Virus record (IMG/VR): IMGVR_UViG_3300036715_000434 | DNA from: an uncultured virus (IMG/VR IMGVR_UViG_3300036715_000434) | Lineage: Duplodnaviria; Heunggongvirae; Uroviricota; Caudoviricetes | Strand: one strand, 5' to 3' | Length of the DNA stretch: 20,000 nt | Shown here: in pieces, positions 8,468 to 20,000 of the stretch | How the letters are laid out: every line of letters begins with the position of its first letter | How positions within the stretch are numbered: the first letter of the stretch is position 1 | Translations under genes and position numbers: made by a program | The notes under the pieces: generated by a model | The model's database searches: none | Told to the model about the DNA's origin: nothing | What the model saw: only the letters and a program-made list of their open reading frames with translations

Positions 8468-8491
8468 ACCCAGGCCAAAGGAACTAATACC

Positions 8492-9241
8492 ATGACCAAC
8501 AAGCGACGCAAGTTCATTCATGGCTGGCGGCCGGATCAACACGACGGCCGCGACCATCTTTACATGATGATCGGCAAGCCAGCCCAGCTGCCGCCCTCTA
8601 TTGATCTCCGCGGCGCCATGCCAGCGGTCTACGATCAAGGCCAGCTCGGATCCTGCACCGGCAACGCCATCGCAGGAGCCATCGACTACGCCAATGGCCC
8701 CGGTGGTCTGATGCCGAGTCGCTTATTCATCTACTATAACGAACGCGTCAAAGAAGGCACGGTCCGTCAAGATGCCGGGGCCATGATTCGCGACGGCATC
8801 AAGTCAGTCAACCAGCTTGGCGTCTGCCCTGAACTCGACTGGCCCTACGACATCAGCAAATTCAAGCAGAAGCCACCCAAGGCAGCCTTTGCCGACGCGC
8901 TGAACAAGAAGGTTAGCTCGTATGCCCGCATCACCTCGCTTCAATCAATGAGGACGTGCCTGGCCTACGACAACAAGCCATTCGTGTTCGGCTTCGCAGT
9001 CTACGAGAGCTTCGAGTCTCAAGCCGTGGCCGACTCAGGTCGGCTAGAGATGCCCACGCCAGGCGAACGCCTACTAGGCGGCCACGCAGTGCTCTGTGTC
9101 GGCTATGACGATGACTCACGTCGCATGATCGTCCGCAACTCGTGGGGATCAAGTTGGGGCATCAACGGCTACTTCACGATGCCATACGACTACATCACCA
9201 ACCCCAAACTGGCCGACGACATGTGGGCCATCACCCTCTGA
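8492..9241 (+). CDS. Papain-like cysteine peptidase, family C1A (xylellain-like)
   Basis: LPPSIDLR, DQGQLGSCT (oxyanion Q, catalytic C), SRLFIYYNER, GGHAVLCVGYDD (H), VRNSWG..WG.NGYF (N). SD AAGGA before ATG 8492. Confidence 0.93.
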   Translation: MTNKRRKFIHGWRPDQHDGRDHLYMMIGKPAQLPPSIDLRGAMPAVYDQGQLGSCTGNAIAGAIDYANGPGGLMPSRLFIYYNERVKEGTVRQDAGAMIRDGIKSVNQLGVCPELDWPYDISKFKQKPPKAAFADALNKKVSSYARITSLQSMRTCLAYDNKPFVFGFAVYESFESQAVADSGRLEMPTPGERLLGGHAVLCVGYDDDSRRMIVRNSWGSSWGINGYFTMPYDYITNPKLADDMWAITL

Positions 9242-9252
9242 AGTAAACCAAG

Positions 9253-9546
9253 ATGAGCTACACGTTCCAACTCCGCGCTACCAACAAGATCGAAGCGCAC
9301 AACAAGGTCAAAGAGCAACTCGACATCGTCGCCCGCAATCAGGTTTGCCACAACCGTGACAAGGCAATCCACCTCGCCGCTCTCGGCGCTCAACTCACGT
9401 TGCTCGACGAACCCACGATCGACCAAGACATCAATGTGGCGATGAGCGGCTCGCTCACCGGCCAGTGGGTCGGATCCGACGTGACCCAGTGCTACGGGGC
9501 CAACCTCAGCATCGGCGTTGCTCTGGTCAACAAGCTGCCCATCTGA
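9253..9546 (+). CDS. Hypothetical protein
   Basis: 97-aa ORF 11 nt after the peptidase stop. Confidence 0.7.
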   Translation: MSYTFQLRATNKIEAHNKVKEQLDIVARNQVCHNRDKAIHLAALGAQLTLLDEPTIDQDINVAMSGSLTGQWVGSDVTQCYGANLSIGVALVNKLPI

Positions 9547-9624
9547 ACGAAGCATGGGAGACCACTAGAAGTCTCCCAGCTAGTAACCCCATCCCACAAC
9601 ATATTAGCACCTACGTAGAAAACC

Positions 9625-10071
9625 ATGCAAACCGACGAAGACCCCAAACCACGTAACAAGGGCGGACGGCCACTAGGTTCAATGAGCAAGCTCGCACGTG
9701 ATGCCAGGCTCAAGGCCGAACGTACTGGCCTCCTACCCCACGAGATCCTACTTGACATCGCTCGCGGCAATCCTCAGAAGGAGAGCTGGACCGACCAGGA
9801 GACGGGGGAGATCATCGTTAAGCATCTGCCCCCTGCTCCGATGGAGATGCGCGTAGATGCAGCGAAGGCAGCGGCTCCGTACTTCGCACCGAAGATCAGT
9901 ACCGTGGAAGTGATTCAAGGAGTTGGTGATGAGGATCTCGACAGCATCATTGCGCGCGCTGCCGCCGAGGCAGGTGTTAGCATTGGCTTTGATGGAGAAA
10001 GCGAGGAGGATGAAGCAGAAGGAGGAGCGTCAACACGCCCTCGCACTCGCGTACGAATCATCGGGGACTGA
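9625..10071 (+). CDS. terS: Probable terminase small subunit
   Basis: N-terminal [23 protein letters not shown] helix, acidic tail; immediately upstream of and overlapping terL. Confidence 0.7.
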
Positions 10072-11356
10072 CGATAGGTCGCCGCCTCCGTTCACCCAGA
10101 ACTACGCGAGCCTCGTCCTAGATCCGAACCACAAGCTCTACTGCTTACTTCACCAGACCGCCCCCTACAAGATTTTTTGGGGCGGTCGTGGCGCCGCGAA
10201 GTCGTGGGGCATAGCCGAGGCGCTCATACGCAAAGCCAGCGCAGCGTCTGTGCGTGTGCTCTGCACGCGTGAGATCCAGAACACGATCAAGGACTCAGCC
10301 CACAAGCTACTGAAGGACATGATCGACCGACTAGGCATGACTAGTTGGTTCACCGTCACTGCTGACTCGATCAAGTCACGTAGCGGTGCAGAGTTCATCT
10401 TCAAGGGCCTGCGCAACAACGAGAACGGCATTCGTTCTACGGAGGGCATCGACATCTGCTGGGTCGAAGAGGCGCAAGCAGTCTCGGAGTCAAGCTGGCG
10501 TTCGCTGATTCCTACTCTACGTAAGGACGGCGTCGAACTATGGGTGAGCTTCAACCTAGTCGACGAAGCTGACGCAACCTACCAGCGTTTCGTCGAGCAT
10601 CCGCCCACCGGCGCGATCGTTCACAAGATCCTCTACTACGACAATCCGTACCTGTCGGCCAAAAGCCGGCAAGATATGGAAGACGACAAAGCTCGTGACT
10701 TCCATATGTACGAGCATATCTGGTTGGGCCTGCCGCTCAAGATCAGTGATGCAGTCATCCTCAACAAGAAGTACACGGTACGGGCCTTTGACGACGACCT
10801 CTGGCAGTCAGCCCCTAGACTTCACTTCGGGGCCGACTTCGGATTCGCTAACGATCCCTCAACCCTCAATCGCTATTTCACGATCGAGAGCGAGGCCACC
10901 AAGAAGCGCAAGCTCTACATCGAGTACGAGGCCTACGGCACTCACGTCGAACTAGACGAGATGCCGGAGTTCTACGACTCAGTGCCTGGCTCACGTGATT
11001 GGCCGATCAAAGCTGACTGCGCTCGCCCTGAGACCATCTCCCACCTCCGACGCAAAGGCTTCAACATCTCTGCTGCTGAGAAGTGGGATGGCTCAGTTAA
11101 GGACGGCATTGCGCATCTGCGTGGCTTCGACCAGATCATCATTCATCCTCGCTGCATAGAGACCGCCAGGGAGGCCCGGCTCTGGCGCTACAAGGTCGAT
11201 CCCAAGATCGTCGACCCCAACGGCAACCCCCAAGTCTTGCCGATCGTTGTCGACAAGCACAACCACACCTGGGACGGCATTCGCTACGGGCTCGATGGGT
11301 ACATCCAGCGATCCGGAGCAGTGGGCGTCTGGGAACGCCTGGGTCAAATGGCCTAG
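9929..11356 (+). CDS. terL: Terminase large subunit, PBSX/SPP1-like family
   Basis: Walker [19 protein letters not shown], Walker B ICWVEEAQ, nuclease [10 protein letters not shown] and [18 protein letters not shown] at 9917-9922 before ATG 9929. Confidence 0.95.
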
Positions 11357-11428
11357 CTTTCTATAATCAACTCGCTTCCCCAGTGATTCGACTTTTCGAT
11401 CACACCAACCACCTGAAGGACTTTCACC

Positions 11429-11797
11429 ATGCCCGCTGCATACTCCGCCGCCGAGATCAACGCCGCACTCCAGCAACGCAACACGCGCTTGGCCTCTGGC
11501 TGGCTCGACCTCCTCGGCGCTTCGAGTGAGCTCATTGCTTCCGTCCAGTTCAACTCCACGGCCGGCGCTGTGGTCGGCACCACCCTGACCTTCTCCGGCT
11601 TCCCCAAGACCGCCACCCCTGGCATCACCGGCACGGCCATCGCTTCGGCCCGTCTGCGCAACGCAGCTCTCGCTGACGTGGCCACCGGCTTCACCGTCGG
11701 CCTGGCTGGCTCTGGTGCTCAGGTCATCGTGAACAAGATGACGCCCGCCTCGGGCGACACCGTGGCCGTTCAGTCCTGCACCCTGACCGACTCCTGA
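11429..11797 (+). CDS. Putative virion structural/appendage protein (beta-rich, 122 aa)
   Basis: Ala/Gly/Thr-rich; TGTA.ASARL...VG..GS.A motif typical of small phage fibre or decoration proteins. SD AAGGA; TATAAT at 11362-11367 upstream. Confidence 0.6.
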   Translation: MPAAYSAAEINAALQQRNTRLASGWLDLLGASSELIASVQFNSTAGAVVGTTLTFSGFPKTATPGITGTAIASARLRNAALADVATGFTVGLAGSGAQVIVNKMTPASGDTVAVQSCTLTDS

Positions 11798-11799
11798 TC

Positions 11800-12120
11800 A
11801 TGCCGTTCGCTCAACAGCCAGACGTAGTCGCACTCGCTAGCGGCGTGCGTAGTGGTAGCGGGGGCATTGGCTCTCCTATCGCTGCGCCGACCTGGCTGGG
11901 GGCGTTCAATGGGGCCCAGACCGTCAACCACACGTTCGGGGTAGCGAACTCTATCACCGGCACAGCGTCGACCGCCTGCACCTTCTCCGTCACGCCGGGC
12001 TACTCGCTCCCGGCTGGCGCAACCCTAGTCACCGTCTCGCCGACTCAGTGCCGCATCGACTTCGACGCGAGCCTGGCCACCGGCACCTACACGTTCAAGA
12101 TCCGGGCCACAGCACCATGA
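11800..12120 (+). CDS. Small Ig-like (He_PIG/cadherin-like) protein, apparently lacking its last beta-strand
   Basis: APTW...TFSVTPGYSLPAGATL...GTYTFKIRATAP* parallels the Ig domain of 15949..17418 but stops after RAT. Confidence 0.6.
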   Translation: MPFAQQPDVVALASGVRSGSGGIGSPIAAPTWLGAFNGAQTVNHTFGVANSITGTASTACTFSVTPGYSLPAGATLVTVSPTQCRIDFDASLATGTYTFKIRATAP

Positions 12121-14159
12121 GCACCTTCGTTGACTCCGGGCTGATCAACGTCGTCTCGTCTATCGTGGTGCCTGCGCCGGCCCCGACGGGCAAGTACTAC
12201 ACAGACCAGCCCTACCTGTGGCAACCCATCGCTACTAACACGATTGTGCAGCGCATCCCCGGCCCGGCCGGCTCGGCTCCGTTCAACCTCAACCGCGAGA
12301 TGGTCGGCCCGACTCGGGATCACGTCTGCGCCTTCAACGGGCAGGTCTCGTGGGCCTGGAAGAACCGTGGTGGGGATTGGCTTGGGCCGCCTCCGACACT
12401 GACGCCACAGAGCGCCGTGGGCTGGTCCTCGATTGCATCGCCCGGAGGCAGTGGCCTTGCCTCCTCGGCGCCCTACACGATGGATGTCACGAGCCTGGCC
12501 CAGTATTGCTGGACCAACGACCGATGGATGGCTCTGGTCATGCAATGCGACTCACAACGCATGATCTGCGCGAACCTCGGCGCTAATCCCCCGAAGATCA
12601 CCTACAACTACTCGGATGGCACCTCCGAGGTCCTCGATATCTGGTTGATGGCCTCCTTCGGTGGCAGCAGCGTCCCGGTGACCAGCTCACTGCAATGGAT
12701 GCTACCCGGCTGCATGGAGTTCCGCCGGCCGAAGAAGCCGGTTACTTCGGCCTCGCTCTACTTCTACATCGACGGGCACTTCAGCGGATCCCAGCCGATC
12801 CGCGTCAACCTACTGGATCCACCGCGCAACACTGACGGGGTTCAGCTTGGTGTGGCCAACAACTCGGTGCTTGACGCCAACCTAGCCAATGAGCCTGGGG
12901 TGCAGTTCGCGGTGCGATTCATGGATGGCTGGAACCTGCAGCAAGTTGTCGGTGTTAACTCGGTCAACTACACCTCTGACAACGTCTACGACCCGGCGCT
13001 CTGGGGCGGCGCGCCAGACCTGAGCAAGTTCCCGAACATTGGGCAGGGCAAGATCAACAACGTTCCCCATGACGTGATCAGCCCGGACCACAGGCTCTAC
13101 CAAGAAAGAGAAGATAGCCCACACGGGTGGTCGGTACTTTCCAGTGAGTGGCAGAGTGTCGACAGCACCTACACGGGTGAAGGATTCACACCGATTGCGC
13201 CGGGTATGGGGGCGCTGAGGATGAAAATGTACAAGGCCGCGGACATCTTCACGGGCTTGCCACTCGCTGACGCCTCGCATTGCGGATCGAGTGGGTCCGG
13301 GGCCTCCGGGTGCATCATCCCCCTGCCACCTGAGGAGTTCGGCTACCAGCAGGAAATCTACACACGCTACTACCACATGATTGGCGCTCCCCGTGGCCTG
13401 CCTTATGTGGCAGACCCGGCAGAGCGGTATAACGTCTACCAGAACAGCGGTGACTTGACCAATCTAACCTCTCCGCAGTGGTGCGATCGTGGTGGCAAGT
13501 TCGGCTTCACTCCGATGCATATCTCCTGGCTCGGTGGCCTGTCTTCCAGTGCTGGCGGTCCTCGTGGATGGCAGATGCGGCATGCCTGGGCAGAGGTCGA
13601 CGAGATGTATGGTGGCCCATGTGAAGGGGGCTGGCGCGTCGGCGTGCACACCTACGACTTCTCCTACGCGCCCCCGAATCCTCCCGGCTATGCGATGGGT
13701 AGCCAAAGTCCGCAGAACTCCGGCTGGAGCCAACGCGGCGGTCTGGGCTCCATGATGTATGCGGGCAAGTGGTATTGCATCGAGATGCGCACCAAGCTCA
13801 ACAGCATTGACCAGCCAGGCGTCCTCGCTGACGGCAGCCCCCACTACGTCGACGGGGTTCAGCAATACTGGACCCCCGACGGGGAGATCGAGGTCTGGTT
13901 GGATGGCATTCGCGTGCTGCTCAATACGGGCCTAGTCATGCGCTCCGCCCCGATTGACACGCCGGCTCTCTGGGAGGCCAGAACCGGAGGAACTTGGAAC
14001 CCCTCTACACAGGCCCGGCCAACTGGCAACCTCGGACATCGCTGGGTGTGGATCAACTGGTTCCACGGCGGCGTGCTGCGGGCACCAACAGACTACGTCG
14101 CTTTCTACGCTGGCCTTGCCTTCGGCAAGAGCTACATCGGACCCATGAGGCTTGCATGA
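12117..14159 (+). CDS. Large putative adhesin/receptor-binding protein with C-terminal concanavalin/polysaccharide-lyase-like beta-sandwich
   Basis: ATG 12117 overlaps the upstream stop (ATGA); GGKFG, GKWYCIEMRTKLN, DGEIEVWLDG and WINWFHGG motifs. Confidence 0.65.
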   Translation: MSTFVDSGLINVVSSIVVPAPAPTGKYYTDQPYLWQPIATNTIVQRIPGPAGSAPFNLNREMVGPTRDHVCAFNGQVSWAWKNRGGDWLGPPPTLTPQSAVGWSSIASPGGSGLASSAPYTMDVTSLAQYCWTNDRWMALVMQCDSQRMICANLGANPPKITYNYSDGTSEVLDIWLMASFGGSSVPVTSSLQWMLPGCMEFRRPKKPVTSASLYFYIDGHFSGSQPIRVNLLDPPRNTDGVQLGVANNSVLDANLANEPGVQFAVRFMDGWNLQQVVGVNSVNYTSDNVYDPALWGGAPDLSKFPNIGQGKINNVPHDVISPDHRLYQEREDSPHGWSVLSSEWQSVDSTYTGEGFTPIAPGMGALRMKMYKAADIFTGLPLADASHCGSSGSGASGCIIPLPPEEFGYQQEIYTRYYHMIGAPRGLPYVADPAERYNVYQNSGDLTNLTSPQWCDRGGKFGFTPMHISWLGGLSSSAGGPRGWQMRHAWAEVDEMYGGPCEGGWRVGVHTYDFSYAPPNPPGYAMGSQSPQNSGWSQRGGLGSMMYAGKWYCIEMRTKLNSIDQPGVLADGSPHYVDGVQQYWTPDGEIEVWLDGIRVLLNTGLVMRSAPIDTPALWEARTGGTWNPSTQARPTGNLGHRWVWINWFHGGVLRAPTDYVAFYAGLAFGKSYIGPMRLA

Positions 14160-15523
14160 CCACCTTCGTTGACTCCGGCTTGATCTCCTTGGTCAGCTAC
14201 GACCCTGGCACCGGCCTCATCTCACCCGGGTCAGTGCTCAATGTGGGGTCCAACACCCTGCAGTCACTTGACCCCAACCTGGATGCCACGCAGAACGCGA
14301 ACTACGGCGGGGCGAACTTGGTCCCGGCCTATGTCGCTGGCTTTGCTTCGTGGTGCTATTCGGCGACGGGATGGGGGCGCTGCACCGACTACAGTGGCCT
14401 CGTCTACTGCTCTGGCTACGGCGCTGAGGGCAGCTTGATGAACTACGGCTCCGCTGGTCACGCCGCTGGCGGGCCTTGCATTTGGGCTCGCTACGATATC
14501 GCCACGGCTACGTGGTCGCTCATTGGCAAGGCGTTGCAGACTGACTCGCTGACTCAAGTCTTTCTGCCTGGCACCAACACCTTCAGCGGCATACCCCCTG
14601 CCACCCGCTGGAATAGCGATTGGGGGGATTGGATCGGTGCTAGCACCGATTGGCCGGTCGCCTGGCGTCAGCCTGGCTTTAATCCACCAGAGGGTGCCCA
14701 CACACGCGCAGGGCTCGTCTATCGCCCAGCCAGCGCAGCAGGCAACAGTCAGGGGGAAATCTGGGCAACGTGCTTCTCCTCTGGCGTGACGGGCGGGTTG
14801 CCGCTGGGGGCCTCCATGGGCTGCTTCGTGTTTGACCTCGACACGGGCCTCTGGAGCCGAGCCACCAAGCGGGCCTACGGCACCCCATTCGAGGCGCAGT
14901 ACGACGCGGTGCACGACAAGATAGTCTGCTGCGTCTGGGAGTTCAGCCATTGGATGGACTTCGTTGATGTGCTTGACTGCGCTACTAGAGTCTGGACCCG
15001 CCGCTACATCACCGATCCCACCCGGCCTTACGTGCAGTTTGACAGCAGTCAGTTCATCTACCAGAACTGGTTCGTGGTCTGCGTGATTGAGTCCATCAGC
15101 AATCCCAACCCGCCAATGAAGCTCTACGCGGTGGACCTGAACCTTATTGCTGGCTCGGCCAGCATCCCAAACGTGTGGCCACTCAACATCTCTGCGCCTA
15201 GCGGCTATCCGGTGACGCTGAACATCCCGAGCGGCGTCAACGGGCCGATCAACTCGCAGACCAACGCATGGATGTATAACAGTGACGACGGCTGCTTCTA
15301 CTGCATCAACAAGGGCGGGGATCCTCACCGATTCTGGAAAATGACCCCGCCAGCCGACCCGATTACCGGCACGTGGGTCATCACCCCGCAGACTCTCACC
15401 GGTGATGCTCTCGTGGTCTCTAGCACCGACTACGCCACGATGCACTACATTCCGAGCAAGAAGGCGTTTGCCTACCAGTCCAACAACACTTCCGCCAGGA
15501 TGGCGCTCGTGAGGTCTCTGTGA
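14156..15523 (+). CDS. Large putative adhesin/receptor-binding protein, predicted beta-propeller-like
   Basis: ATG 14156 (ATGA overlap); repeated blade-like motifs YDIATATWS, FDLDTGLWS, LDCATRVWT, DPITGTWV. Confidence 0.65.
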   Translation: MTTFVDSGLISLVSYDPGTGLISPGSVLNVGSNTLQSLDPNLDATQNANYGGANLVPAYVAGFASWCYSATGWGRCTDYSGLVYCSGYGAEGSLMNYGSAGHAAGGPCIWARYDIATATWSLIGKALQTDSLTQVFLPGTNTFSGIPPATRWNSDWGDWIGASTDWPVAWRQPGFNPPEGAHTRAGLVYRPASAAGNSQGEIWATCFSSGVTGGLPLGASMGCFVFDLDTGLWSRATKRAYGTPFEAQYDAVHDKIVCCVWEFSHWMDFVDVLDCATRVWTRRYITDPTRPYVQFDSSQFIYQNWFVVCVIESISNPNPPMKLYAVDLNLIAGSASIPNVWPLNISAPSGYPVTLNIPSGVNGPINSQTNAWMYNSDDGCFYCINKGGDPHRFWKMTPPADPITGTWVITPQTLTGDALVVSSTDYATMHYIPSKKAFAYQSNNTSARMALVRSL

Positions 15524-15939
15524 TCATCCCGAAGACAACCCAGTGCTCTTGTGAGAAGTGCCAGGCCATGTGCGCTCACTCGGTCTGCCTGCCCACGCCT
15601 GAAGAGGCCCGCATTCTCATCAAGAGGGGCTACGGGCCACGCCTGGCCACCTACCAGCTCTGCCCTGATCCGACGCAGCTGGTCTTCGTTGGGCCAGCTC
15701 CCAAGGGCAAGGAGGGGGCCAGGGCTCTGCCTGACACGGGAGCCGCCTGCACCTTCTACACTGACGGCGAGTGTGAACTCCACGACCTCGGATTGAAGCC
15801 TCTGGAGGGCCGGCTTGCCCACCACGACCGTGATCCAGCCCCGATCAGGATTCACATGTCCACGCTTTGGCGTGGTAAGACATTCAACAGCGTGCTGGCC
15901 AAACTGCTCTCACGCGCTCACTCAGCCACCACGGAATAA
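15520..15939 (+). CDS. YkgJ/FliB-like cysteine-cluster (Zn or Fe-S binding) protein
   Basis: CSCEKCQAMC...C and CTFYTDGECELH...KP pattern; GTGA overlap with the previous gene. Confidence 0.7.
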   Translation: MIIPKTTQCSCEKCQAMCAHSVCLPTPEEARILIKRGYGPRLATYQLCPDPTQLVFVGPAPKGKEGARALPDTGAACTFYTDGECELHDLGLKPLEGRLAHHDRDPAPIRIHMSTLWRGKTFNSVLAKLLSRAHSATTE

Positions 15940-15948
15940 GGACCGACC

Positions 15949-17418
15949 ATGACCAGACCCACAGTAATCGCAGCAGACTATCGGGACGACCAGTTCGGCC
16001 CCGAGACATTCACGGTGGCCTGTGGCTCCGGGAGCAATCGAGCCATCCTCGTTGTTGCAACGGTCTGGGGGGCCTCGTCTGAGATGCCGATGACCGCCGA
16101 CCTGGGCGGCGTCTCCCTGACGGCCGGCACTCCTCAGTTCAGTGGCTCACTCACCGGCTACCTGCGCGCCTTCTGGTTGCAGGGGGCCTCGATGCCTACT
16201 GGCACGCAGACCCTGACGGTGACGCCCAGCTCGGCGGTCCACCTGAGCGTCTCCTACGCGCTGTATGACAACGTCACGGCACTGACCACCCCGCCAACCT
16301 TCGCCAGCAACGTCAGCACCAACCCGCTGATGACGGTAGCCACCGCGGTAGGCCACGTGGTGTCGATGACCTACCGGGCGGACGCGGCCAATGTCCCGCA
16401 TACGGCCAACGCCCCCGCCGTGTCGCAATACCAGGAGGTCGGCTACGGCCCTTATGCGGGCATCACCGTTGATGCGCTGGTGGCCTCCGGCTCATCCATC
16501 AACATCAACACCACCTGCTCTTCTACAACGGGCTGGGGCGGATTCGCCTGGGACATGACGGGCACGATCTCCGCCCCGACGATCCTGACGCTGACCGGCC
16601 CGTCGAGTGGCACAGTCTCCGTCGCGTCGACCAACTTCACCGTGGGCACCGACAGCACGATCACCTCGGGCAGCTTCGTCTGCACGCCGAGTGATGGCGG
16701 CGATGGCGGGACGTTCAGCCCAACCACGGTGACCTTGAACAGCGCGACCCAGTCGGCCACCTTCACCTACACGCCGGCCTCCACCGGGGTCAAGACGATC
16801 TCGATCTCGACCTCTGGCCTCATCGCCCCGTCGAACCTCAGCTACACGTCGAATGCGGTGGCCAACCCGCCGCCGACCTTCCCCGGCCCGAACATCTCCA
16901 ACATCTCCGCAGTTAATGCGGTGGCGATCACCCCAGTCTCGACGGCCAGCAAGTTTAGCGATAGCGATACGCTGACCTACAGCGCTCAAGGAATCTGGCC
17001 AGTGGGTATCACGGTCAACGCATCGACCGGCGTTATCTCGGGGACCTCCTCGGCTCTGGGCACTTACGCGACTTGCAAGGTGAGGGCCACCGACACGGCA
17101 AGCCAGTTCGTCGAGTCGAACGTCTTCACCATCACCGTCGCAGTCGCCACGGGCTCGATGACCTTTGGCCCGATGTCGAACAACGCCGGCAGCCTGTGGC
17201 CCTCTGGCACCGCGGTCAAGCTCACGTGGTATCCGGGCGGCCGCGTCGGCGTGCTTTCTGGCATCACGCCAGTGGAGATGGACATCACGCTGGGCTCCGG
17301 TGGTCTGGCCACCACTACGGCAACGCTGGCCAAGGTGGCGGGCTGCGGATTCATCGTCAAGCAGGGGGCCGACGCCCTCACCGATTCGGTCTACTACCAA
17401 GCTGGCACCCCGGCGTAA
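15949..17418 (+). CDS. Ser/Thr-rich multi-domain protein with Ig-like (He_PIG) domain, putative virion appendage
   Basis: PPTF...LTYSAQGIWPVGITVNASTGVISGT...GTY...VRATD...FTITV is a typical putative-Ig domain; SD AAGGA. Confidence 0.75.
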   Translation: MTRPTVIAADYRDDQFGPETFTVACGSGSNRAILVVATVWGASSEMPMTADLGGVSLTAGTPQFSGSLTGYLRAFWLQGASMPTGTQTLTVTPSSAVHLSVSYALYDNVTALTTPPTFASNVSTNPLMTVATAVGHVVSMTYRADAANVPHTANAPAVSQYQEVGYGPYAGITVDALVASGSSININTTCSSTTGWGGFAWDMTGTISAPTILTLTGPSSGTVSVASTNFTVGTDSTITSGSFVCTPSDGGDGGTFSPTTVTLNSATQSATFTYTPASTGVKTISISTSGLIAPSNLSYTSNAVANPPPTFPGPNISNISAVNAVAITPVSTASKFSDSDTLTYSAQGIWPVGITVNASTGVISGTSSALGTYATCKVRATDTASQFVESNVFTITVAVATGSMTFGPMSNNAGSLWPSGTAVKLTWYPGGRVGVLSGITPVEMDITLGSGGLATTTATLAKVAGCGFIVKQGADALTDSVYYQAGTPA

Positions 17419-17424
17419 ACCATC

Positions 17425-18393
17425 ATGATGCTCCGCGACCTGAACCAAGTCCGGGATGGCAAGCGCATCCTGGACACGCCCTGGGTAGGCGTTCTGGGGG
17501 CCACCATCCCGAGCACCGGCTCGAATGGCGTGCCGGCCCTCCTCTACAACGACGTGATCTCTGACTCGCTGCAGACCAACGCAGTTCGGATCTGGATCAC
17601 GTCTCACAACTTCGACACGTTCTACGTCTACGATGACAGCTCGTATACGTTCACCGTCTCGGCAGATGGCATCTACACGGCAACTGGCGTCCTAATCGTC
17701 GATGATGTCGACCAGAATGCCCCGGCCACGGTGCTCACGGTCAACATCGGCAACACGCTGCTCAATGCTGCGGCCGCTCTGGCTGTGAAGACAACTCCGG
17801 TGATGGCCGCTGCGGCGACTGTCTCCGGGGTCCTCAGCGCGACGGCCACGCTTGGAGTCACCACAACCCCCGACCTTGCCACGACCGCGGGCAGCTCGCA
17901 GCAAATCACGGCTACGGCCACTTTGACGCTCCAGACGTATCCTGGTCTGTTGGCAGCTGCGGCATTCGGGGGAACGCTCCCGGTCACGGCCACCCTGGAT
18001 ATCACTGTCACCCCGTCGATCTCTGCTCTGGTCTTCACCGGCTACCAGTTGCCTGACACGATCGCCCCATCACGCTTGACGGCGGTCGACCTCGACAGTG
18101 ATGCGACTCACCCCGCGGCGGTGTTCATCAAGGATCCGCAAGCCGTGTTGGACTACGGGATCGACATCACTGCCTGGCTGGCTGACTCCCAGGACACCCT
18201 CGCCGGGTTCAACGCGGCGCCTACCGAGGGCTCTGATGTTTCCGTTCACGCTGAAGGGATGGTCGGTGGCGTGATGGCCGCAATGATCGGGGGAGGCACA
18301 ATCGGGGCTCCCAACGCGGTGATGTTCGACTTCCAGACTCTTGGCGGCCGACATGATCAACGCACCATTTACTTCCAGATCCAGGACCGCTAA
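17425..18393 (+). CDS. Putative virion structural protein with C-terminal KDPxAVLDYxID-type adaptor domain
   Basis: Ala/Thr-rich repetitive centre; C-terminal FIKDPQAVLDYGIDITAWL...T.GGR..QRTI. Confidence 0.65.
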   Translation: MMLRDLNQVRDGKRILDTPWVGVLGATIPSTGSNGVPALLYNDVISDSLQTNAVRIWITSHNFDTFYVYDDSSYTFTVSADGIYTATGVLIVDDVDQNAPATVLTVNIGNTLLNAAAALAVKTTPVMAAAATVSGVLSATATLGVTTTPDLATTAGSSQQITATATLTLQTYPGLLAAAAFGGTLPVTATLDITVTPSISALVFTGYQLPDTIAPSRLTAVDLDSDATHPAAVFIKDPQAVLDYGIDITAWLADSQDTLAGFNAAPTEGSDVSVHAEGMVGGVMAAMIGGGTIGAPNAVMFDFQTLGGRHDQRTIYFQIQDR

Positions 18394-18684
18394 ATGGCAG
18401 CCCAAGGAACGGCAACAATCGACTTCGGGGCCGTTCCTGGCTCCAACGAGGCTTCAGTCAACGTCACGGGCCAAGGATCCATCCTGACCACGAGCAAGGC
18501 TGAAGCGTTCATCATGGCCGACAACACCACGTCGGACCACACGGCCAACGACCACCGGTACGCGGCGGCTCTTATGGGCCTCACCTGTGGCACCCCCACA
18601 CTCGCCACCGGCTTCACCATCTACGCACGGTCGACTGAGAAGTTGACGGGCACCTTCCAGCTCAATTGGGTCTGGGCAGACTAA
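18394..18684 (+). CDS. Small beta-rich hypothetical (putative structural) protein
   Basis: 96 aa; starts immediately after the upstream TAA. Confidence 0.7.
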   Translation: MAAQGTATIDFGAVPGSNEASVNVTGQGSILTTSKAEAFIMADNTTSDHTANDHRYAAALMGLTCGTPTLATGFTIYARSTEKLTGTFQLNWVWAD

Positions 18685-18695
18685 AGGAAAACAGC

Positions 18696-20000
18696 ATGTC
18701 ACTCGACGCAGTCATTCGTGGCGTTACTTCGGGCACTGGCGCCGATGTCAATGCCTCCAAGCAACTCATGGTCGTGCCTGAGACCAATGCGGCCTCCAAT
18801 CCAGGCAATGTCGGCGGGATGCGACTCTTCTCGGAGAACGATCCGGGCGCCCAGACCGGCACGCCCTACCTCAAGTCTCCGGAGACCTCGCCAGACTACC
18901 GGCTGCGCATGGGACGGGACTCGGTTCTGTTCACCGACAACTTCAACTCATCGGCCCAGAATACGAACCTCTGGGCCTACACCTCTGCCACTTTGACGGC
19001 AGCGCAGCCGGGCGCGGGCACGGTCAACTTCTCTGCCGTGCAGGGCACCACCTCGGCGCACGGCGCGTTCATGCGCTCGTGGCAGTACTTCCCGCTGATC
19101 AACACCTCACCTCTGGCCATGGAGTTCTACTGGCAGCAAACGACGGCGGCCATGGTCGCCGGCGAAGTCTGGCTGCAAGGTCTCGGCCTCCCCTCCTCCG
19201 CTGTGGCCCGCCCGACGGATGGCGTGTGGCTCAAGTTGACTACGGCTGGCCTTGTGGGCGTCATTGCTTACAACGGCACGGAAGTTGAATCCGGCATCCT
19301 CTACCCGTTCGCCTCGTTGGTGGTGGGCACCAATTACAAGTCAACTGTCGTTGTCGGTGAGAACGGGGTGGAGTACTGGCTGAACGACATCTTCCTTGGC
19401 GAGCAGCCCCTCCCCAGTTCCAACGGCACCCCGTTCGTCGCGGCTTCGGCCCCGGTGTTCCTGATGAAGTACAACACGGGCACCGTCAGCAACACCAACA
19501 CCATCCGGGTCGCTCGCGTTGGGGTCACGCTGATGGACATTGACACGGCGCGTCCGTGGTCGGTGACTAACTCGGTCATGGGCCAGAACGCCTATGTGGG
19601 CCAGAACGGGCACACGATGGGCAACACGCAATTCGTGGGCACCATCACCACCGGTTCGAGCCCTATGCTGCCCACCAGCGTGGCAGGTTCCAACACGGCA
19701 GCGAACTCCGTTGGCCTGGGTGGCGTGGGTGCAATCAATGCGGCAGCAGCGGCGGCCACCGACTTTATCTGCACCAGCTACCAGAACCCAGCGCCCACCA
19801 TCAACATCACGGGCCGCAACCTCATCATCAGGGGCGTGCGCATCAGCACGATCAACACGGGCGCCGCGGTGGCCACCACGCCGACGACTATCCAGTGGTC
19901 GCTGGCGTTCGGGCACAACTCGGTGACGATGAACACTACTGAGAGTGGCTCCTTCGCTACGGCCACCGCTCACGCCCCGCGTCGTGTCGCTCTGGGCTTC
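18696..20000 (+). CDS. Large beta-rich putative virion protein, partial (runs off the window end)
   Basis: Not in the ORF track. SD AAAGGA, ATG 18696, open to the end of the window: MSLDAVIRGVTSGTGADVNASKQLMVVPETNAAS...APRRVALGF. Confidence 0.8.
   Translation, partial: MSLDAVIRGVTSGTGADVNASKQLMVVPETNAASNPGNVGGMRLFSENDPGAQTGTPYLKSPETSPDYRLRMGRDSVLFTDNFNSSAQNTNLWAYTSATLTAAQPGAGTVNFSAVQGTTSAHGAFMRSWQYFPLINTSPLAMEFYWQQTTAAMVAGEVWLQGLGLPSSAVARPTDGVWLKLTTAGLVGVIAYNGTEVESGILYPFASLVVGTNYKSTVVVGENGVEYWLNDIFLGEQPLPSSNGTPFVAASAPVFLMKYNTGTVSNTNTIRVARVGVTLMDIDTARPWSVTNSVMGQNAYVGQNGHTMGNTQFVGTITTGSSPMLPTSVAGSNTAANSVGLGGVGAINAAAAAATDFICTSYQNPAPTINITGRNLIIRGVRISTINTGAAVATTPTTIQWSLAFGHNSVTMNTTESGSFATATAHAPRRVALGF

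Follow-up and report, generated by a model that had tools for sequence, protein, structure and literature searches.

The question raised by the virus record IMGVR_UViG_3300036715_000434, from an uncultured member of the Caudoviricetes, is why a phage would encode an apparent immunoglobulin (Ig) domain that stops one strand short of completion and place directly behind it two large proteins that resemble each other only at their first residues. The window, which is the whole 20,000-nucleotide stretch of DNA analysed here, carries the three genes in a row on the + strand, as it does every window gene whose coordinates are given with a strand below. These encode P0001, a protein of 106 residues (11800..12120, +) that we call the socket, and two cargoes, P0002 with 680 residues (12117..14159, +) and P0004 with 455 residues (14156..15523, +). 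The P0001/P0002 and P0002/P0004 junctions are both 4-nucleotide ATGA overlaps of stop and start codons. An initial annotation, made from the letters of the sequence, had described an incomplete 106-residue Ig open reading frame (ORF) followed by two large proteins alike at the N-terminus only, and the translations, the overlaps and a BLASTP comparison all agree with that description. The explanation towards which we lean is that a He_PIG-type Ig domain has been split between genes at its F-G loop, and that P0002 and P0004 would each supply strand G to P0001 in trans.

The similarity between the two cargoes is confined to their first 14 residues, of which 11 are identical and all 14 are positive (E 0.004, BLASTP), while the next-best segment has an E-value of 0.14. 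It begins precisely at the ATG. The two plug peptides are codons 1-14 of P0002 (MSTFVDSGLINVVS, 12117..12158, +), starting in the ATGA overlap with the P0001 stop, and codons 1-14 of P0004 (MTTFVDSGLISLVS, 14156..14197, +), starting in the ATGA overlap with the P0002 stop. The likeness extends to the DNA, as 23 of the first 24 nucleotides are identical between the two genes, synonymous positions included (valine is GTT in both). An exact 17-nucleotide string at 12123 is repeated at 14162, where 0.07 matches would be expected and none of 200 shuffles contained two copies. From codon 9 on the conserved leucine, isoleucine, valine and serine residues differ in their codons (CTG and TTG for leucine, TCG and AGC for serine), suggesting selection on the peptide and not on the DNA alone, and at the level of sequence this points to protein-level selection. 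A strain variant in sequencing run X4 has nine substitutions at 12245-12605, in the first quarter of the P0002 gene, with the junction and the shared peptide unchanged. The first ~23 residues of P0004 lie outside its globular part, and for both cargoes the ESM Atlas structure alignments begin only around residues 24-28; the peptides would accordingly be tails that lie free at the N-terminus of each globular protein.

The socket ends …GTYTFKIRATAP* (translation of 11800-12120), right after strand F of a He_PIG-like Ig domain. It covers only positions 17-81 of the 96 in He_PIG (PF05345; E 0.012). A complete copy of the same domain is found in P0003 (489 residues, 15949-17418, +), where residues 314-398 (…RATDTASQFVESNVFTITVA; 16888..17142, +) cover positions 6-96 of 96 with an E-value of 7.8e-11 and 42.7 bits against a cut-off of 24. 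The initial annotation had named this intact domain, with SQFVES at 17101-17118, and the position is as it gave it; the full He_PIG match makes the domain an internal reference for strand G. P0001 is best described as He_PIG-like and not as a full Pfam member, which would be expected if 15 positions are missing. In the AF2 model of P0001, made from an alignment of eight rows and with a predicted local distance difference test score (pLDDT) of 75, strands A'-F lie at residues 40-44, 50-56, 61-64, 74-80, 83-88 and 95-104 (95-99 and 101-104). There is no strand past residue 104, and hence no strand G, and residues 1-25 fall below pLDDT 50, the N-terminal ~25-30 residues being disordered. When the model was compared with 48,161 chains by VIA-align the best rows were Ig-type domains of titin, cadherin, Dscam and SraP, and in the 15 rows representing a single Ig domain each, the alignment to P0001 stops about 6-29 residues short of the chain end, which is the position of strand G. 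A complete P0001 domain without a groove, which would have told against the annotation, is therefore not what profile and model describe. In silico, P0001 appears to lack strand G of the Ig fold, the acceptor feature of donor-strand systems. Further intact domains were sought with jackhmmer among related loci and none was found.

If the missing strand is supplied by the cargoes then their peptides should resemble strand G of the intact domain in the correct register. The end of P0001 (…RATAP) was aligned on …RATDT of P0003, and N-terminal peptides were scored against P0003 residues 385-397 with BLOSUM62, ungapped and with the initial methionine excluded. Measured in this way against strand G of P0003, the N-terminal peptides of P0002 and P0004 reach 21 and 18, the two highest values among the 63 N-termini of the phage that start with ATG; the third-ranked has a score of 5. 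Scores of 21 and 18 are reached by only 0.05-0.07% of 10,363 13-mers. The proposal that the end of the ORF joined to either peptide recreates the last strands of such a domain is borne out by this ranking.

The split is not an assembly artefact. The junction at 12117 is spanned gap-free by contigs of runs X3 (12030-12391), X4 (11822-12350) and X1, which may be the source run, and that at 14156 by contigs of X2, X3 and X4. No letters are inserted or deleted in the contigs of these four runs over 11429-15939, with the reservation that their studies come from one year and similar habitats and may not be fully independent. The X4 contig over 11822-12350 contains five substitutions (12245-12320), none of them in the peptide. 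The sequencing indel at ~12117 that the initial annotation had considered is thus absent from the contigs of other runs, and the same is true at 14156.

The truncated form is also conserved. A HMMER search with P0001 of 1.84 billion representatives gave nine proteins at E<=0.001, namely P0001 itself, seven homologues (P0005-P0011; 57-148 residues, 38-53% identical to P0001) and one 1575-residue repeat protein. All seven homologues end within one alignment column of the end of P0001 and none runs on into strand G, indicating that the truncated form is the conserved one. The homologue P0007 covers He_PIG positions 8-80 of 96 at 14 bits, and four other homologues have no match. The homologue search suggested by the annotation therefore returned the same truncation seven times and no intact fused domain, there being no fused socket-plug form among the matches. 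The 1575-residue protein, P0012, was rejected as a fused homologue because it is a repeat protein of generic type whose match is confined to a short motif. Most homologues come from Logan assemblies. A search of IMG/VR with P0007 matched this virus alone, a search of genome contigs with P0010 gave one irrelevant low-complexity match only, and searches of metagenome contigs with P0013 and P0008 gave no match. Read by eye, the 148-residue homologue P0010/P0013, on a 286-kb contig from outside the window, starts with an apparent twin-arginine (Tat) signal followed by a lipobox-like cysteine; the Tat signal of P0010 is not supported by Pfam or NCBIfam. The socket family may also occur as bacterial surface lipoproteins.

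Docking was modelled for one pair, P0001 with P0002 residues 1-40. The interface score ipSAE (interaction prediction score from aligned errors) was 0.64, 0.63 and 0.64, compared with 0.00 for the best of three controls. The runs share at least 97% of their contacts, with a partner pLDDT of at least 59. The predicted interface is formed by P0002 residues 2-17 and P0001 residues 29-32, 36-47 and 92-105, with the pairs 97:12, 99:10 and 103:5 running antiparallel to F and the pairs 41:11, 42:12 and 44:14 parallel to A'. In the model the P0002 N-terminus sits between A' and F as a canonical strand G, so that the docking foreseen by the annotation is reproduced computationally for this peptide. The P0004 peptide would play the same role, to judge by its 14/14 positive match to that of P0002.

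Several observations weigh against this interpretation. The support for docking is computational only, and a model that passes reports likeness and not binding. Of 157 solved complexes 116 reached the mark used for the complex score, as did 2 of 215 mismatched pairs, but the alignment supplied for P0001 had eight rows and these calibration counts are only rough. Having been trained on intact Ig domains, the predictor may also have rebuilt a familiar fold from two pieces. The He_PIG match of P0001 lies below the Pfam cut-off (16.5 against 24 bits), its best VIA-align rows have Z 6.0-6.5 with none at Z>=8, a Z of about 6 being in the range that the tool calls common and middling, and Foldseek gave no match in the PDB at E<=0.001, the top rows being Ig domains at E 0.15-0.9. 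On their own the 40-residue N-termini match no Pfam family. No further gene led by the plug peptide appeared in sequence searches of IMG/VR or in a word search. The exact 17-mer occurs in five stretches of IMG/VR, two of which are this virus and three of which are chance matches inside unrelated ORFs; a degenerate back-translated pattern of the peptide matched this virus alone; and the word search with P0004 residues 1-40 gave P0004 itself as the sole match at E<=10 among 49 candidates. Finally, no result here places P0001, P0002 or P0004 in the virion, and the hints of a virion role described below concern the cassette in which they lie. The pieces appear to fit the Ig fold while the binding itself is a modelled one, and we regard the trans donor-strand interpretation as partly supported.

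Other explanations can be offered for the same locus. The 14-residue N-terminus could be a generic docking or anchor peptide for another, complete domain, for example that of the Gp77-like protein encoded downstream or of another cassette protein, with P0001 an unrelated decoration of Ig-like type that merely happens to have a short C-terminus. It is established that docking peptides can bind complete domains: the phage KP32 receptor-binding protein RBP2 is not incorporated when its first 29 residues are missing (PMC13352976). P0001 is sub-threshold for He_PIG and was the single partner modelled, and a Gp77-type fiber-tail adaptor domain is indeed nearby. We nevertheless consider this explanation unlikely, for it accounts neither for the in-register likeness of the peptides to strand G of P0003, nor for the constant stop of the socket family after strand F, nor for a model that puts the peptide between A' and F with controls at 0.00. 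Moreover, Pfam and PHROGs scans of 33 proteins, 13 from the window and 20 from an adjoining record, detected no T4gp10-like branching domain on any of them.

A further possibility is that the shared 5' segment acts chiefly at the nucleotide level and has no docking role, being a recent duplication or gene-conversion tract, a short-homology junction for cargo swaps, or an element of translational coupling. The identity of 23 of the first 24 nucleotides with synonymous positions included, the exact 17-mer repeat and the location of both copies at ATGA stop/start overlaps are what such a segment would look like. On the other hand codons 9-14 keep their residues with different codons, which speaks for selection on the protein, and the five X4 substitutions at 12245-12320 leave the peptide untouched; neither the likeness to strand G nor the complex model would be explained, and we think it improbable that this is the whole story. 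As an account of origin it is compatible with donation of strand G in trans. Still less credible, and in our view very improbable, is that P0001 and P0002 form one polypeptide, either because ribosomes recode at the ATGA overlap or because of an assembly error, so that the Ig domain would be complete in cis with no trans docking. Slipping by -1 on the last sense codon would give an exact in-register continuation, and the P0002 frame is open upstream to 12048, but there is no slippery heptamer of the form X XXY YYZ in 12048-12120 and no indel in the contigs of other runs. The seven homologues are all separate proteins of ~57-148 residues with the same end column and no fused form, and P0004 has the peptide even though P0002 upstream of it lacks the end of an Ig domain.

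The system that donation of strand G most resembles is that of the chaperone-usher pili (Fim, Pap, Caf1), in which an Ig-like fold without its C-terminal strand G is filled by the N-terminal peptide of another subunit. In donor-strand exchange between pilins the donor strand is antiparallel to F. The locus described here likewise has a predicted Ig-type socket without strand G, the groove of which is filled in the model by the P0002 N-terminus running antiparallel to F. The differences are that assembly here would be that of a phage in the cytoplasm and not periplasmic, that the donors are predicted to be large globular enzymes or lectins and not pilins, and that Pfam and PHROGs revealed neither a PapD-type chaperone nor an usher in the same 33 proteins. 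A pilin-like polymer, in which the N-terminus of P0001 would itself be the donor strand, was considered and is not supported by sequence. When the plug peptides were matched to the first 32 residues of five members of the socket family, the best ungapped matches had p values from 0.048 to 0.65 relative to shuffles, none significant after multiple tests, and without a significant likeness of the socket N-terminus to the plug no polymer is indicated.

SpyTag/SpyCatcher (a split CnaB2 Ig-like domain) and split GFP strand 11 work on the same principle, with a detached strand of ~13-16 residues that rebuilds a beta-sandwich or barrel and tethers the fused cargo. Both are engineered, and SpyTag bonds covalently, whereas the split seen here occurs in nature, is shared by the members of a small family, and shows no sign of an isopeptide-forming triad, although no test aimed at one was made.

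Two phage systems are closer in setting. The secondary receptor-binding proteins of Klebsiella phages (KP32/K11/KP34) carry a short conserved N-terminal docking peptide, experimentally validated, that binds a complete branching domain (PMC13352976). As in those proteins, a short conserved N-terminal peptide, with no folded anchor domain, is found here on a putatively exchangeable and glycan-acting protein, in this case 14 residues on two otherwise unrelated proteins. They differ in that here both cargoes carry the peptide, the acceptor is a separate 106-residue protein, and attachment is proposed to occur by completing a fold that is left unfinished. In podophage A1002, the nozzle (the beta-propeller/platform of a core tail protein) lacks strands, which a second protein supplies in trans, as seen by electron cryo-microscopy, and the fibre dimers attach to a rope by beta-sheet augmentation (PMC13730344). 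The likeness to A1002 and to podophage GP4 lies in a tail fold completed by separately encoded strands and in a Gp77-type adaptor in the same cassette, here on a 322-residue neighbour rather than on the socket or the cargoes. In A1002 there is one fixed partner and no Ig domain that serves as a common socket for alternative cargoes. A gp80-like fiber monomer was not recognised here, the 122-residue product of the gene upstream of the socket having no PDB sequence match to 8jou chains and a model pLDDT of 39. The initial annotation had treated such a mechanism as not known to be described for phage appendages. Literature searches, which covered few subscription journals, found no split Ig domain used as a shared phage socket; the docking peptides (PMC13352976) and the trans-completed tail fold (PMC13730344) are nevertheless precedents for its parts.

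If strand G is donated in trans, the pathway could be as follows. The three genes would be translated together via their overlapping stop and start codons, so that the socket and plugs are co-produced. P0001, consisting of strands A'-F, would fold as an open-edged six-strand sandwich, into which the ~14-residue tail of P0002 or P0004 would insert as strand G, running antiparallel to F but parallel to A'. A single small type of adaptor would in this way bear one or the other of two unrelated modules that bind or degrade glycans. The complex would presumably form in the cell, the flexible N-terminal ~30 residues of P0001 may tie the pair to the virion, and the host surface may be where the cargoes act; if a particle bears many sockets, both cargoes would be displayed on it. 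The arrangement probably arose when a fibre protein containing an Ig linker was divided at the F-G loop, the 5' end being copied later to the second cargo gene, a copying event suggested by the near-identical first 24 nucleotides.

A true system of this kind would be a minimal natural adaptor, in which a tag of 14 residues mounts unrelated enzymes on a socket of 106. It would explain how phages swap or gain receptor-binding modules without a folded anchor domain, would offer a compact and genetically portable handle for altering phage host range in laboratory strains, and would join the donor-strand chemistry of pili to virion assembly. It can be tested directly with three small constructs. 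More tentatively, and with some doubt on our part, the locus could represent a general and undescribed docking mode, a natural non-covalent 'tag and catcher' in which an Ig family permanently without strand G clips on any protein led by the strand. Phages would use it to mount interchangeable glycan heads and bacteria may use it to display surface partners, the latter being suggested by the Tat/lipoprotein-like signal at the start of P0010/P0013.

The nature of the cargoes is less well defined than that of their N-termini. P0002 and P0004 belong to no Pfam, PHROG or NCBIfam family, and P0002 has no homologue of 374-1190 residues among 8000 candidates scored. For P0002 the ESM Atlas gives a PL14 polysaccharide lyase / CBM96 lead (features 0.95, with 181 shared), the second structure row aligning residues 28-679. 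For P0004 it gives a Kelch-type beta-propeller lead (features 0.93-0.95; template modelling score 0.67, with residues 24-455 aligned). The earlier labels 'lectin/lyase-like' and 'propeller-like' are in agreement with these hits but find no match in Pfam, PHROGs or NCBIfam, and we treat the lyase and propeller identities, predicted from sequence and structure models, as leads only.

The genomic setting is that of a phage with a contractile tail. The record G001 has the same sequence as the window over 11429-15939 and extends past the window end, where it encodes a portal, a MuF-like protein, a protease/scaffold, a cement protein and a major capsid protein, as well as neck proteins, a tail sheath (DUF3383, E 2.5e-125), a tube and a tail assembly chaperone. 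The sheath and the other tail genes make the phage a myovirus and not a podovirus. Between terminase and portal there is a gap of 14.3 kb (11357 to ~25681 in window coordinates), compared with 0-1.4 kb in five related virus records, and this cassette consists mostly of orphan genes. L021, the nearest partial relative, has just the final two genes of the cassette (ORFs of 812 and 332 residues) in common with this phage. As the 14.3-kb insert has no counterpart in relatives, the socket and cargoes belong to a lineage-specific accessory cassette. No socket was found in 6162 ORFs of 80 terminase-related loci besides this virus; one 14-bit socket match in the five related virus records was disregarded because of an internal stop. 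In cultured phages there was no match to 9923-18393 by megablast or to P0001, the 122-residue ORF or the 322-residue ORF by tblastn. Apart from the pair described here, the related loci contain pairs of large ORFs with a common N-terminus in just two ordinary families of paralogues. These are neighbouring leucine-rich-repeat-like paralogues starting MEIDLSNKGLEGV (L060, 49-4690) and neighbouring pentapeptide-like repeat paralogues with common N-termini (L030, 17353-18537), and in both cases the common N-termini look like those of ordinary paralogues rather than docking tags.

Within the window the genes are tightly packed into a string headed by the terminase large subunit (9923-11356, +; Terminase_3, E 6.4e-38), and a promoter and terminator scan of 9500-19000 gave nothing above chance. 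A gene for a 122-residue protein (11429..11797, +) ends 2 nucleotides before P0001 and matches phrog_3758 'virion structural protein' (E 8.1e-05), making its product a possible virion structural protein; it also has a weak BclA_C match in Pfam (E 0.046, under the cut-off), and its low-confidence single-sequence AF2 model is unusable. Behind P0004, and joined to it by a GTGA overlap, is a 139-residue Cys-rich ORF (15520..15939, +) that matches phrog_19147 (unknown function, E 1.2e-12). P0003 is followed by the 322-residue ORF (17425..18393, +), whose C-terminal Gp77-like domain (Pfam PF23148, residues 236-317) is above the cut-off at E 1.4e-14. This ORF also matches PDB 8jou_D (E 0.0052), and its domain resembles the fiber-tail adaptor gp77 of podophage GP4, although the phage is otherwise a myovirus. 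The cassette further includes a tail-fiber-like ORF of 138 residues. Together, the Gp77-type domain, the phrog_3758 match and the tail-fiber-like ORF are hints which suggest that the cassette may encode virion appendages, and it is from this gene neighbourhood that we infer the roles of 'adhesin' and 'phage appendage' for the cargoes and socket.

Two further features of the window were noted. The middle of the 322-residue ORF is Ala/Thr-rich, with recurrent 'ATATL…TTP'-like segments on reading by eye that are reminiscent of a beta-augmentation 'rope'; Tandem Repeats Finder reports no DNA repeat in this region. Just upstream of the terminase genes, at window positions 8489-9241, there is a papain-family cysteine peptidase (Peptidase_C1, E 6.1e-13; phrog_16701 'peptidase'), which is possibly a lysis or accessory enzyme.

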